Shown here in pieces: positions 9,430 to 13,862 of a stretch of DNA of 64,000 nucleotides (its first letter is position 1; every line of letters starts with the position of its first letter). Source of the stretch: an uncultured Myxococcales bacterium (GTDB lineage: Bacteria > Myxococcota > Kuafuiibacteriia > Kuafuiibacteriales > Kuafuiibacteriaceae). The translations under genes and the position numbers were made by a program. Where the stretch lies: positions 14,913 to 78,912 of the forward strand of contig CAZFIV010000008.1 in the NCBI GenBank assembly GCA_964519665.1. The letters run 5' to 3'. Under the pieces are notes generated by a model, which was given only the letters and a program-made list of their open reading frames with translations, ran no database searches and was not told the DNA's origin.

Positions 9430-9480
9430 CGACGACTCCGCCGCCCCCGGTTATAGATCCTCATCGCCTCGTGTCCCGGA

Positions 9481-9656
9481 CTAGAGCGCCGATTCACTTG
9501 GAGCGTGCTGTTGTCGCGCCGGAATCGGCCCGTCGGGTCGTCGCGTGAGGAGGGCGCGTATCGGGAATACGCAACCGACGAAAGCCGAAGGCGGCGCGGC
9601 GAGCAGATGGGGTGAGAACCAGCGACAATAGTGCGATCCAAGTGAATCGGCGCTAG
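9481..9656 (+). ncRNA. Candidate structured RNA: imperfect inverted-repeat arms of about 35 nt enclosing about 105 nt with internal hairpins
   Basis: Arm 9481-9518 (ctagagcgccgattcacttggagcgtgctgttgtcgc) pairs with arm 9622-9656 (gcgacaatagtgcgatccaagtgaatcggcgctag). Three of the mismatches are G:U-compatible only in a plus-strand transcript. The interior contains the perfect hairpin GCGTAT-cggga-ATACGC. No family can be assigned by eye. Confidence 0.25.
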
Positions 9657-9780
9657 GGAGCGCGACATCGTTCAGCGTCCTCTCCAATCCATCCGATCCC
9701 GGCCCCTTTCGCCGGTCGAAATCGCGAGCAGGTACAGCAGACGGGGCCGAGCTCGTCGAGCGCGCCGCGCCGTCGGGTTA

Positions 9781-9804
9781 CCGACTATCGGTGGCGATAG
9801 TCGG
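9781..9804. repeat. Perfect 9-bp inverted repeat (ccgactatc-N6-gatagtcgg) upstream of the first hybrid kinase
   Basis: The palindrome is read directly from the sequence and lies about 50 bp upstream of the 9855 ORF. It could be an operator or a hairpin. Confidence 0.4.
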
Positions 9805-9854
9805 TGGCTTAAGGTTGCCTACTACCTGCCGATCGGTGTGGGCTAGAGAGCTGC

Positions 9855-11750
9855 GTGCAGTCTTGGGGAGAAAGCCTCGTCCCGCAGGCGAGTCAAGACC
9901 TCGCCCGCCGCGCCGGGCCGGGCATCGCTCTGCTCCCCCTCGTCTTCGTAGCGATGGCCCTGCCGGCGGTTCCTCTGTGGCCGTCGATGCTGTGGTCGGT
10001 GGGCATCTCGATCGGCTTGGTCTCGGCCTTGCGAATCGCTCTGACCCGCTCGCTCTTGGCTCGACCCGCGAGCCCCGCTGGTGACCGCCGCCTTTGGGCG
10101 TTCGGAGCCCTCACTACGCTCGCCGCCATTCTGTGGTCTTTCGGAACAATAACTGTCGTCTTGAGGTACGGGTACACACCGGAGACCTACCTGATGATCA
10201 TCGGTACGGCCGGGGTGTCGGCGGGCGCCGTGACCTCCCTGAACGTCTCGCGCTGGATGGTCCTCAGCTATTGTTTGGTGTTGATGGTCCCGCTGCTCGT
10301 GGCCACCGTCTGGATGACCATCTACCACGACGGCTACATCAGCATGCCGTTCATGGGCGTCCTGTACATCGTCCTGATCTTGGTCACGGCGGAGCGCGCC
10401 AACCGCGAATACTGGAGCCGGTTGCTGGCCCGACACCAGATCGAGCTGCAACAGCGCGTCCTCGCAAAGGCTCACCGCGACGCCCGAGCGGCGGCAGTGG
10501 CCAAGACTCAGTTTCTCGCGTCGATGTCTCACGAAATTCGGACCCCGATGAATGGCGTCATGGGCGCTGCTCAGCTTCTCCGAGATACCCGGCTGTCGCC
10601 GGAGCAAGCCCAACTGGTCCGAATGCTCGAGTCGTCCGGCAGAGCGCTCCTTCACATCATCGATGACATCCTCGACTTCTCGAAGATCGAAGCTGGCCGG
10701 ATGAAGGTCGAGGATATTCCGTTCGACTTGTTCGAGCTGGTCGACGACGCGGCGATGATGATGGGCAGCCAGGCGACCACCAAGGGGCTGAGCCTCGAAG
10801 TCGACTACGCCACCGGAACTCCTCAACATGTCCGAGGGGACCCGACGCGCATCCGCCAGATCCTGCTGAATCTGCTGTCCAACGCGATCAAGTTCACCGA
10901 AGTCGGCGGCATCGAGGTCAAAGTCATGGAGTCGCTGGGGCCATCCGCGCCTCCGGCGAGCCGCGAGAGCACCGACGACCCGCCCTCCGCCGAAAGCGAA
11001 GAAGAACGTCGGCACATCGTCCGGCTCGAGGTCCATGATACCGGCCCTGGGGTTCCCCCCGAGAGTCGTAGCCATCTCTTCAAAGCGTTTAGCCAAGCCG
11101 ATGCATCCACGACCCGTCGGCACGGCGGGACCGGACTCGGCCTCGCGATCAGCAAACGGCTATGCCTGCTGATGAATGGGACCATCGGCTTTTCACCTCG
11201 ACCGGGGGGCGGGTCCGTATTCTGGTTCAGCATCGGGTTTGCGCAGGCACCGGCCCCCGTGGTCGTGCCCAAGGCCGCCGTCGAGCCGCCTACCGGGCGA
11301 CCCGGGTCGGAAGAGCGACCCCGAATCCTGATCGTCGAGGATAATCAGGTCAATCAGCTCCTCGCGGCCCGGTTCCTCGAACGGGCGGGATTCGGGTGCG
11401 AAGTCGCCTCGTCGGGGGAGCAGGCGCTGCGGGTGCTCGAGAATCACCGGTTCGACGCCGTCCTGATGGACTGCCAGATGCCAGGCATGGACGGCTTGGC
11501 GACCACTCGCGCCATCCGCCAACAAGAGGCACCGAACGGCCCTCGACTGCCGATCGTCGCCCTCACCGCCGACGCTATGGACGGCACCCGGGAACGCTGC
11601 CTGGACGCCGGCATGGACGATTTTCTGACCAAACCCGTGCAGGCCGACGAGATGGCCGAGGTGCTCCACCGCGTGCTCAGCCAGGACACCGCGGCCACTT
11701 ACCCCTCCCAAGCCGTCGAAGAAAGTGCCCGTCTCGGCCGCGCCCCTTGA
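9855..11750 (+). CDS. Hybrid sensor histidine kinase/response regulator with a polytopic (~6 TM) membrane-embedded N-terminal sensor
   Basis: About six TM helices are followed by HisKA (FLASMSHEIRTPMNGVMGAAQLL), HATPase_c (GGTGLGLAISKRL) and a C-terminal receiver (ILIVEDNQVNQLLAARFL...DAVLMDCQMPGMDG...LTKP). The true start may lie downstream of 9855. Confidence 0.85.
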   Translation: MQSWGESLVPQASQDLARRAGPGIALLPLVFVAMALPAVPLWPSMLWSVGISIGLVSALRIALTRSLLARPASPAGDRRLWAFGALTTLAAILWSFGTITVVLRYGYTPETYLMIIGTAGVSAGAVTSLNVSRWMVLSYCLVLMVPLLVATVWMTIYHDGYISMPFMGVLYIVLILVTAERANREYWSRLLARHQIELQQRVLAKAHRDARAAAVAKTQFLASMSHEIRTPMNGVMGAAQLLRDTRLSPEQAQLVRMLESSGRALLHIIDDILDFSKIEAGRMKVEDIPFDLFELVDDAAMMMGSQATTKGLSLEVDYATGTPQHVRGDPTRIRQILLNLLSNAIKFTEVGGIEVKVMESLGPSAPPASRESTDDPPSAESEEERRHIVRLEVHDTGPGVPPESRSHLFKAFSQADASTTRRHGGTGLGLAISKRLCLLMNGTIGFSPRPGGGSVFWFSIGFAQAPAPVVVPKAAVEPPTGRPGSEERPRILIVEDNQVNQLLAARFLERAGFGCEVASSGEQALRVLENHRFDAVLMDCQMPGMDGLATTRAIRQQEAPNGPRLPIVALTADAMDGTRERCLDAGMDDFLTKPVQADEMAEVLHRVLSQDTAATYPSQAVEESARLGRAP

Positions 11751-11792
11751 CCCGCGAACCTCGAGGCTCCTGAATAACGGGTACGCCCGACG

Positions 11793-13862
11793 ATGGAGCT
11801 CCACTTGTGCCCGCCCATGCATCGTCAGATGCAGCAGGATCTCGGGGTCTACGCCCAGCCCGGCCTCTACATGTTTCCGGGATTGATAGCCGGCTTCGCC
11901 GCGCTCAGCCCGGACGTGCGCGAGCTGGGGCCGACCTTCTGGGCGCCCGCGACCGTGATGACGTTGTTGGTCGTGGCCCGCCTCCCGCTCGCGCGACGAC
12001 TGGCCTCGAACCCGCCCACCGCCCACCGACACCCGATCGGATGCGCGTTCGTCTGGCTGGCCTGGATCGGAGCCGCCGGTTGGGGCCTGACCGTCGCGGT
12101 CACCCTCCACCAAGCAGGGTACAGCGAGGGCACCTATCTGCTCATCATGGCGACCGCGGGCGTCGCCGCCGGGGCGACCGCCGCCCTGTCGGTGTCGGAA
12201 CGCATCATCGTGCCCTACGTGGTCGTGCTCCAGGCCCCGCTGTGCGTAGCGACGACCATCCTCGGCCTGAGTGGACGCGGTACCCTGGTCATGCCGCTGA
12301 TGTACGTCATGTTCACCGGCTACATCGTCTTCATGGGGGCGCGTCTCAGCCGGGCCTACCAGAGCAAACTCAGCGTCATCGTCGATGCGCAAGCCGCAGT
12401 GATGGCCGCGGAGGCCAAGCGGCGTTTCCTGGCATCGGTCGCGCACGAACTAAGAACACCGATGAACGGAATCATGGGCGTTTCGGACCTCCTCAAGGAG
12501 ACCGAGGTCCGCCCCGAGCAAGTAGAATTGCTGGCGACATTCGACGAAGCGTCGAAGGCCCTGCTTCGGATTATCGACGAGGTCCTGGACTTCGCCAAGG
12601 CCGAGGATGGCCACGTCGAGATCATCAACGCTCCGTTCAGCCCTACGGACTGCGTCGAAGAGGTCGTCGGCGTCATGGAACCGGTGGCCCGGAGTAAGCA
12701 ACTCGAGCTGTCGATGTGGTTCGCCCAGGACCTACCCGAGTTAGTGATCGGCGATCAGGGCCGACTTCGACAGATCCTGATCAACTTGGCCGGTAACGCC
12801 ATCAAGTTCAGTCGGGTCGGCGGGGTTCACTTCCAGGTTCGCCGCCGAGCGGCCGGCCCCGGTCTTCGGTTGTCGGTCACCGACACCGGTCCCGGGCTCG
12901 AAGCAGGCTTTCAACCGTTCGAGCCTTTCGCCCAGGGCGCCGCCGGTGCCGAGCACGGAGGAACGGGGCTCGGCCTCGCCATTTGCGACCGATTGACGAA
13001 GCTGATGGGCGGTGCGATCGGCTTTGAACAAGCTGACCGGGGCGGTACGACGTTCTGGCTCGAGGTGCCTTTCGAAACGCACACACCGCGACGAGACCCG
13101 CCCCGCTTCGGCCGCGCGGCTTGGGTCATCGACCGTTGGGCCCCCGGCCGGTCGGCCACCGTCCAGCTTCTTCGGCGGTGCGGCGTCCACGCCGAGGCGG
13201 TGGCCCATGATGCGGGTCCGCCGCCCCCCGGCATCGACGTGTGGCTGGCCATCGACGACGCAACCCCCGACACGCAGGATGAATTGACACGACTGCGAGG
13301 CCCGGACACCCGGCTCGTCGTGATGACCACCCGCGAGCGTCACGCTGCCATGAGTGATGTCCTCGGCGGTCGGGCCGACTTCGTCACGACGCGGCCGTTG
13401 ACCCATCGCCTGGTCGAGCGAGTGTTGGACCGCCACCCATCGCCCGACGTCTCGAGGGCCGGTCCCCGGCCTCGCGTGGAGCTCGACTCGCCTCGGCGCG
13501 TCCTGATCGTCGAAGACAATCGGGTCAACCGAATGGTCGCCGAACGATTCGTGCGCGAAGCCGGCTTCGACAGCGAGGTCGCTCATTCGGGCCGGGAGGC
13601 TCTTCTTCGATTCTCGGAGACCTCGTGGGACGCGATTCTGCTCGACTGTCGGATGCCGGAGATGGACGGATGGGAAACCGCCCGGGCCATTCGCCGCCTG
13701 GAAGCCGACTCCGAGCGTCGGGTTTCGATCATTGCCATGACCGCCGACGTGGAAGACCTCACCCGCGAGCGCTGCTTCGAGGCGGGCATGGATGCATACC
13801 TCCCGAAGCCGGTCGACCCCGCGGCGTTGGTGAACCTTCTGCGGCAGGTCACAAAAGCCTGA
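11793..13862 (+). CDS. Hybrid sensor histidine kinase/response regulator, paralogue of the upstream gene
   Basis: The architecture is the same. Its TM core GTYLLIMATAGVAAGATAALSVSERIIVPYVVVLQAPLCVATTIL aligns with ETYLMIIGTAGVSAGAVTSLNVSRWMVLSYCLVLMVPLLVATVWM of the upstream gene. HisKA is FLASVAHELRTPMNGIMGVSDLL. An extra roughly 150-aa linker precedes the receiver (VLIVEDNRVNRMVAERFV...ILLDCRMPEMDG). Confidence 0.85.
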   Translation: MELHLCPPMHRQMQQDLGVYAQPGLYMFPGLIAGFAALSPDVRELGPTFWAPATVMTLLVVARLPLARRLASNPPTAHRHPIGCAFVWLAWIGAAGWGLTVAVTLHQAGYSEGTYLLIMATAGVAAGATAALSVSERIIVPYVVVLQAPLCVATTILGLSGRGTLVMPLMYVMFTGYIVFMGARLSRAYQSKLSVIVDAQAAVMAAEAKRRFLASVAHELRTPMNGIMGVSDLLKETEVRPEQVELLATFDEASKALLRIIDEVLDFAKAEDGHVEIINAPFSPTDCVEEVVGVMEPVARSKQLELSMWFAQDLPELVIGDQGRLRQILINLAGNAIKFSRVGGVHFQVRRRAAGPGLRLSVTDTGPGLEAGFQPFEPFAQGAAGAEHGGTGLGLAICDRLTKLMGGAIGFEQADRGGTTFWLEVPFETHTPRRDPPRFGRAAWVIDRWAPGRSATVQLLRRCGVHAEAVAHDAGPPPPGIDVWLAIDDATPDTQDELTRLRGPDTRLVVMTTRERHAAMSDVLGGRADFVTTRPLTHRLVERVLDRHPSPDVSRAGPRPRVELDSPRRVLIVEDNRVNRMVAERFVREAGFDSEVAHSGREALLRFSETSWDAILLDCRMPEMDGWETARAIRRLEADSERRVSIIAMTADVEDLTRERCFEAGMDAYLPKPVDPAALVNLLRQVTKA

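Follow-up and report, generated by a model that had tools for sequence, protein, structure and literature searches.

CqsS of Vibrio and LqsS of Legionella are homodimeric quorum-sensing hybrid histidine kinases in which an N-terminal bundle of six transmembrane (TM) helices is joined directly to a HisKA-HATPase-REC output (PMC4821796). The helices are of minimal length with no extracellular loops, the ligands are lipophilic, and the membrane part can be swapped with the anchor of an adenylyl cyclase (PMC4821796). A six-TM domain is also present in the Pseudomonas aeruginosa diguanylate cyclase ImcA, which has a 6TM-GGDEF architecture; there it forms the dimer interface and is required for activity. 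This domain docks the partner protein IsmP through the TM helix of IsmP, and iron is sensed by the CHASE4 domain of IsmP, not by ImcA (PMC10904736). On the cytoplasmic side, ShkA of Caulobacter crescentus consists of DHp, CA, a pseudo-receiver (Rec1) and a second receiver (Rec2), and works with a separate Hpt protein, ShpA (10.1101/675454).

We analysed two genes in a stretch of 64,000 nucleotides (the window), HK1 (9855..11750; GTG start, 631 aa) and HK2 (11793..13862; ATG start, 689 aa). Both lie on the + strand, as do all features given below. They are neighbours separated by 42 nt, with EtfB and EtfA upstream and RNase G downstream, and the gene call of the public assembly on the same contig gives identical proteins. 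In each protein, Pfam identified HisKA, HATPase_c and Response_reg domains, with E-values of 1e-19 to 1e-30. Over its full length (9855..11750), HK1 is made of a six-TM module, a signalling helix, HisKA, HATPase_c and REC. HK2 (11793..13862) has a six-TM module, HisKA, HATPase_c, a pseudo-receiver and REC. BLASTP aligned the two proteins with 36 % identity over 456 aa (E 7e-71) and their receivers with 52 % identity (E 8e-34). The architecture and the similarity between HK1 and HK2 are far beyond chance.

The HisKA (DHp) domain of HK1 (10500..10697; E 5.6e-23) carries the phospho-accepting H226 in the motif SHEIRTPMNG. Its HATPase_c domain (10836..11234; E 3.9e-25) has intact N, G1, F and G2 boxes and an acidic, proline-rich insertion of 26 aa (aa 362–387; 10938-11015), which alignment showed to be missing from HK2 and its orthologs. 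The receiver (11325..11666; E 2.7e-30) has the full active-site set of E495-D496, D539, T571 and K593. In HK2, the HisKA (E 9e-19) and HATPase_c (E 1.2e-23) domains span 12414..13076, with H218 in AHELRTPMNG and the same four ATP boxes. Its C-terminal receiver (13500..13841; E 1.8e-24) is likewise complete (E574-D575, D618, T650 and K672). Neither protein has lost a residue that autophosphorylation (H226, H218) or transfer to its own receiver (D539, D618) requires. With the H-box histidine, four ATP boxes and five receiver active-site residues in place, both proteins are HisKA-type hybrid histidine kinases. The gene pair as such belongs to ordinary bacterial two-component signalling.

Pfam detected no Hpt domain (PF01627) in either protein at E≤1, and the receivers are followed by 27 aa (HK1) and 6 aa (HK2). 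HK1 and HK2 are thus plain hybrid kinases and not unorthodox ones such as BarA, ArcB and TorS, which carry an Hpt in the same protein. An earlier note on this DNA had described both as HisKA-HATPase-REC hybrids lacking an Hpt, as found here, and had added that they must feed an unlinked phosphotransfer protein. The "must" is overstated, as an unlinked Hpt is one option. Along this route, the phosphoryl group would pass from His to Asp inside the protein and then to an Hpt protein encoded elsewhere; scans of the 64 kb of the window revealed none. Alternatively, the receivers could drain off phosphoryl groups as a sink, or keep the kinase autoinhibited. CqsS also lacks an Hpt and uses a separate Hpt protein, LuxU. 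All scores of HK1 and HK2 against NCBIfam equivalogs fell far under the cut-offs, and their matches to the quorum-sensor kinase LuxQ covered the kinase core only.

The membrane module of HK1 comprises aa 1–191 (9855..10427), and that of HK2 aa 1–190 (11793..12362; family HMM score 172 bits, with hydropathy and alignments in agreement). In each protein, hydropathy marks six hydrophobic stretches. AF2 modelled residues 1–192 of HK1 (pLDDT 95.6, pTM 0.89) with six helices, at residues 2–38, 43–69, 78–105, 109–128, 133–157 and 163–191. The loops between them are 3–8 residues long, and there is therefore no periplasmic domain. The distribution of Lys and Arg, with 12 on the predicted cytoplasmic side versus 1 on the periplasmic side, fits an N-in/C-in topology. 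Aligned with each other, the modules of HK1 and HK2 score about 60 bits (E about 1e-18) and are homologous. Thus, the wholly intramembrane sensors of roughly six TM segments and the alignable TM cores proposed in the earlier note are borne out.

The last helix of the HK1 model (163–191) extends to the end of the modelled piece. From the model, the alignment gaps and the position of the H-box, TM6 is predicted to continue as one helix toward H226 (10341..10532), and no HAMP or PAS domain was found between TM6 and the H-box in HK1 or HK2. In the alignment, the linker of HK1 is longer by 11 aa than those of HK2 and its ortholog P0270, and by 7 aa than those of the orthologs P0271 and P0124. Differences of 7 and 11 residues would preserve the phase of a coiled coil.

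By their described layout, CqsS and LqsS would be the closest functional analogues of HK1 and HK2. The six TM segments, the minimal loops, the direct fusion to a HisKA kinase with a receiver and the lack of an Hpt are all shared. The gene for the autoinducer synthase CqsA or LqsA, a PLP-dependent acyl-CoA transferase, adjoins that of CqsS or LqsS. No synthase of this type lies beside HK1 and HK2, and the window ORFs that were scanned include no protein of the aminotransferase class; the pair adjoins EtfAB and RNase G. HK2 further differs from both in its pseudo-receiver.

The module is part of a large family that lacks a Pfam or NCBIfam model and stands N-terminal to many different signalling outputs. 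The family contains at least 2,000 clusters defined at 50 % identity (a threshold of E≤1e-3 gives 2,008 representative clusters, and one of ≤1e-10 gives 366), with members in Acidobacteriota. No Pfam family matched the N-terminal region of HK1 or HK2 at E≤1, and no curated model for the six-helix module was matched in Pfam or NCBIfam. Among 79 members, the module is followed by HisKA in 51, GGDEF in 10, MCPsignal in 4, EAL in 2 and SpoIIE in 1. The family signature consists of an Arg that ends helix 2, a Trp in helix 3, T-A-G-x-x-A-G-A in helix 4 and a Pro in helix 5; R60, W94, G124 and P146 are near-invariant. The HK1 module bears this signature (L16, R60, W94, G120, G124, L129 and P146). In concept, the family resembles MASE1–9, 5TMR-LYT, 7TMR-DISM and MHYT, which are also polytopic modules without a sizeable periplasmic domain that precede kinases, GGDEF/EAL proteins and chemoreceptors. 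Membership in the MASE, 5TMR-LYT or 7TMR-DISM families had been put forward for checking, and it did not hold. None of MASE1–9, 5TMR-LYT, 7TMR-DISM and MHYT matched HK1 or HK2 in Pfam at E≤1, and the families that were listed at E≤10 for 46 isolated modules include no MASE-type family, 5TMR-LYT, 7TMR-DISM or MHYT. No module-family member reaches those Pfam models, MASE5 being weakly touched by three of the 79 full-length members (best E 7.7e-4). A new membrane-associated sensor domain could be defined from the confident structure model and the signature, which would allow annotation of many kinases, GGDEF/EAL proteins and chemoreceptors.

We propose that HK1 and HK2 each form a homodimer and perceive their signal inside the bilayer. 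This signal would be a lipophilic small molecule or a lipid, as for CqsS and LqsS, or else the touch of another membrane protein that serves as partner, as for ImcA. It would shift the packing of the helix bundle, and this shift would switch the balance of kinase and phosphatase activities through helix 6 and the coiled-coil linker. The earlier note had taken the intramembrane sensor to imply a lipid or membrane-stress stimulus; this is overstated, although CqsS and the adenylyl cyclases make such a stimulus plausible by analogy. As a whole, we consider it reasonably likely that the locus encodes two working hybrid kinases with a shared six-helix intramembrane sensor, the relay set out above, and HK2 as the ancestral gene.

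The six-helix fold may serve otherwise, for dimerisation and partner docking, as in ImcA. The module would then be an anchor, dimerisation scaffold and docking platform, and a separate membrane sensor would supply the input, as IsmP does for ImcA; HK2 could receive an extra cytoplasmic input through its pseudo-receiver. The 6TM domain of ImcA is a precedent, as it is a symmetric dimer interface in contact with the TM helix of IsmP, whose CHASE4 domain senses the iron (PMC10904736). The family has a conserved small-residue motif in helix 4 (A119-G120-x-x-A123-G124-A125). Motifs of this type are used for tight helix-helix packing. PAS is present in about 19 of the 79 members, and since many members have it after the module, sensing may lie elsewhere in those proteins. 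However, no candidate partner gene adjoins the pair, whose neighbours are EtfAB and RNase G. The Arg, Trp and Pro that are invariant across the family, in or at the ends of helices, suggest more than a passive anchor. CqsS, a 6TM bundle of like design, binds its ligand directly (PMC4821796). We judge a module without a sensory role of its own to be rather unlikely and retain the intramembrane sensor as the preferred reading.

We also compared the module with hexahelical membrane domains of cyclases, using human AC5 (8sl3) and AC9 (6r3q) and the bacterial Rv1625c/Cya. ImcA (8wcn) was among the three best structural matches of the module. The module-family profile (46 sequences) did not match AC, Cya or ImcA when searched against all PDB sequences at E≤10. 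ImcA takes its regulation from IsmP, and no ligand of ImcA itself is known to regulate it. True homology of the family to the hexahelical domains of class III adenylyl cyclases and ImcA is doubtful. One ancient intramembrane receptor shared by kinases, diguanylate cyclases, chemoreceptors, phosphatases and cyclases, as such homology would imply, can be put forward just as tentatively. If the homology is true, bacterial genetics on this family could address what the membrane domains of adenylyl cyclases sense. More speculatively, HK1 and HK2 might pair through their modules into a 12-helix pseudo-heterodimer, like the halves of mammalian cyclases.

BLASTP and the alignment showed about 125 extra residues between HATPase_c and REC in HK2 (aa ~430–560). 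No Response_reg match was found on this segment in Pfam at E≤1. Its residues ~442–545 (13116..13427) aligned with the canonical first receiver in hhalign (E 1.8e-4 over 108 columns), and a profile search of the PDB returned AmiR and receivers. The AF2 model, built from five orthologous sequences only (pLDDT 80.3, pTM 0.76), has five strands and four helices. The order is b1-a1-b2-b3-a3-b4-a4-b5-a5, with a Pro-rich loop in place of helix a2. Almost all of the top 50 Foldseek matches were receivers (best 5tqj, E 8.9e-4, TM 0.63), AmiR and Rec1 of ShkA (6qrl) among them. At the active site, D447-R448 stand for the acidic pair, D488 and T512/T513 are kept, and R534 replaces Lys. In the orthologs, Pro occupies the second acidic position, and the Arg at the Lys position is invariant. 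With a modelled receiver fold and substituted active-site residues, the segment is a pseudo-receiver (PsR) as defined in PMC12632262. The earlier note had described an insert of roughly 150 aa in the second copy. The extra residues before the receiver are there, but they are a conserved ancestral domain and not an insert. All HK2 orthologs keep the pseudo-receiver, and HK1 is therefore the gene in which it is missing.

HK2 shares the order of its cytoplasmic domains with ShkA, whereas HK1 lacks the pseudo-receiver. ShkA also has no Hpt in the protein. Both pseudo-receivers keep the Asp at the phospho-acceptor position and have an incomplete acidic pocket (D-R/P in HK2 and its orthologs, S-P in ShkA). 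ShkA is soluble, whereas HK2 is membrane-bound. Direct reading of the HK2 linker between the pseudo-receiver and REC (RVLDRHPSPDVSRAGPRPRVELDSPRR) showed no ShkA-type DDR motif. We rejected HK2 as a c-di-GMP-gated kinase of the ShkA type because of this; the layout alone is shared. Like Rec1 of ShkA, the pseudo-receiver probably controls whether the true receiver can reach the kinase core. HK2 would thereby have a second input on the cytoplasmic side, which is absent from HK1.

The earlier note had ascribed the pair to a local duplication. A recent tandem event in this lineage, after which one copy gained or lost the 150-aa insert, would fit the adjacency, the shared orientation and the 42-nt gap, all of which stand. 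It would also fit the common 6TM module, as HK1 is the best non-ortholog match of the HK2 module (60 bits versus 46 for the next). HK1 is placed as sister to the HK2 clade with 69–80 % bootstrap (module alone or module plus core), and its GC3 is native-like. However, three syntenic loci, in the order ParA-EtfB-EtfA-HK-RNase G-Omp85-...-HAMP HK-TPR, each have a single kinase, which is the HK2 ortholog (P0270, P0271 or P0124; 52–58 % identity), and no room for a relic. HK2 and these orthologs form a clade with 100 % bootstrap that leaves out HK1. HK1 is equidistant (40–43 %) from HK2 and each ortholog and shows no excess of shared derived states with HK2 (22 unique matches, versus 16–19 with the orthologs). 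The dS between HK1 and HK2 (1.63) is not under the ortholog values (1.31–1.41); with dS saturated at 1.3–1.6, dN/dS carries no information. Gain of an insert does not fit an ancestral pseudo-receiver. By their kinase cores, the two genes are not each other's closest paralogues in the global database, a case that the earlier note had named as refuting: the core of HK1 is 52–55 % identical to hybrid kinases with other sensors and 42 % to HK2. The HK2 core is divergent (33–43 % to other hybrid kinases). We consider a recent local duplication improbable. Synteny and trees instead identify HK2 as the apparent ancestral occupant of the slot between EtfA and RNase G. HK1 appears to be an old, diverged relative, present in this genome only among the loci compared, and not a fresh tandem copy. 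The locus shows that adjacent, alignable genes need not come from local duplication; here, synteny and site patterns separated an ancestral copy from an old, separately diverged relative.

The least probable reading, a transporter-like or permease-derived N-terminal region that would make HK1 and HK2 trigger transporters or co-sensors, is disfavoured and very unlikely, even though the top Foldseek matches of the module are the 6TM cation-diffusion-facilitator transporters ZnT7, ZnT1 and YiiP, at a best E of 0.057.

In a DNA alignment, the 42-nt spacer between HK1 and HK2 (11751..11792) is similar to the leader between EtfA and the kinase at the closest ortholog locus (GAACCTC.AG.C..CTGAATA), which suggests that HK2 retained the ancestral leader. 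The spacer upstream of HK1 (9430..9854) measures 425 bp, versus 85–297 bp upstream of the single kinase in the relatives. Together with HK1, it forms an extra block of this genome compared with the three syntenic relatives. Repeat and folding analysis showed that this spacer holds a long hairpin and a palindrome.

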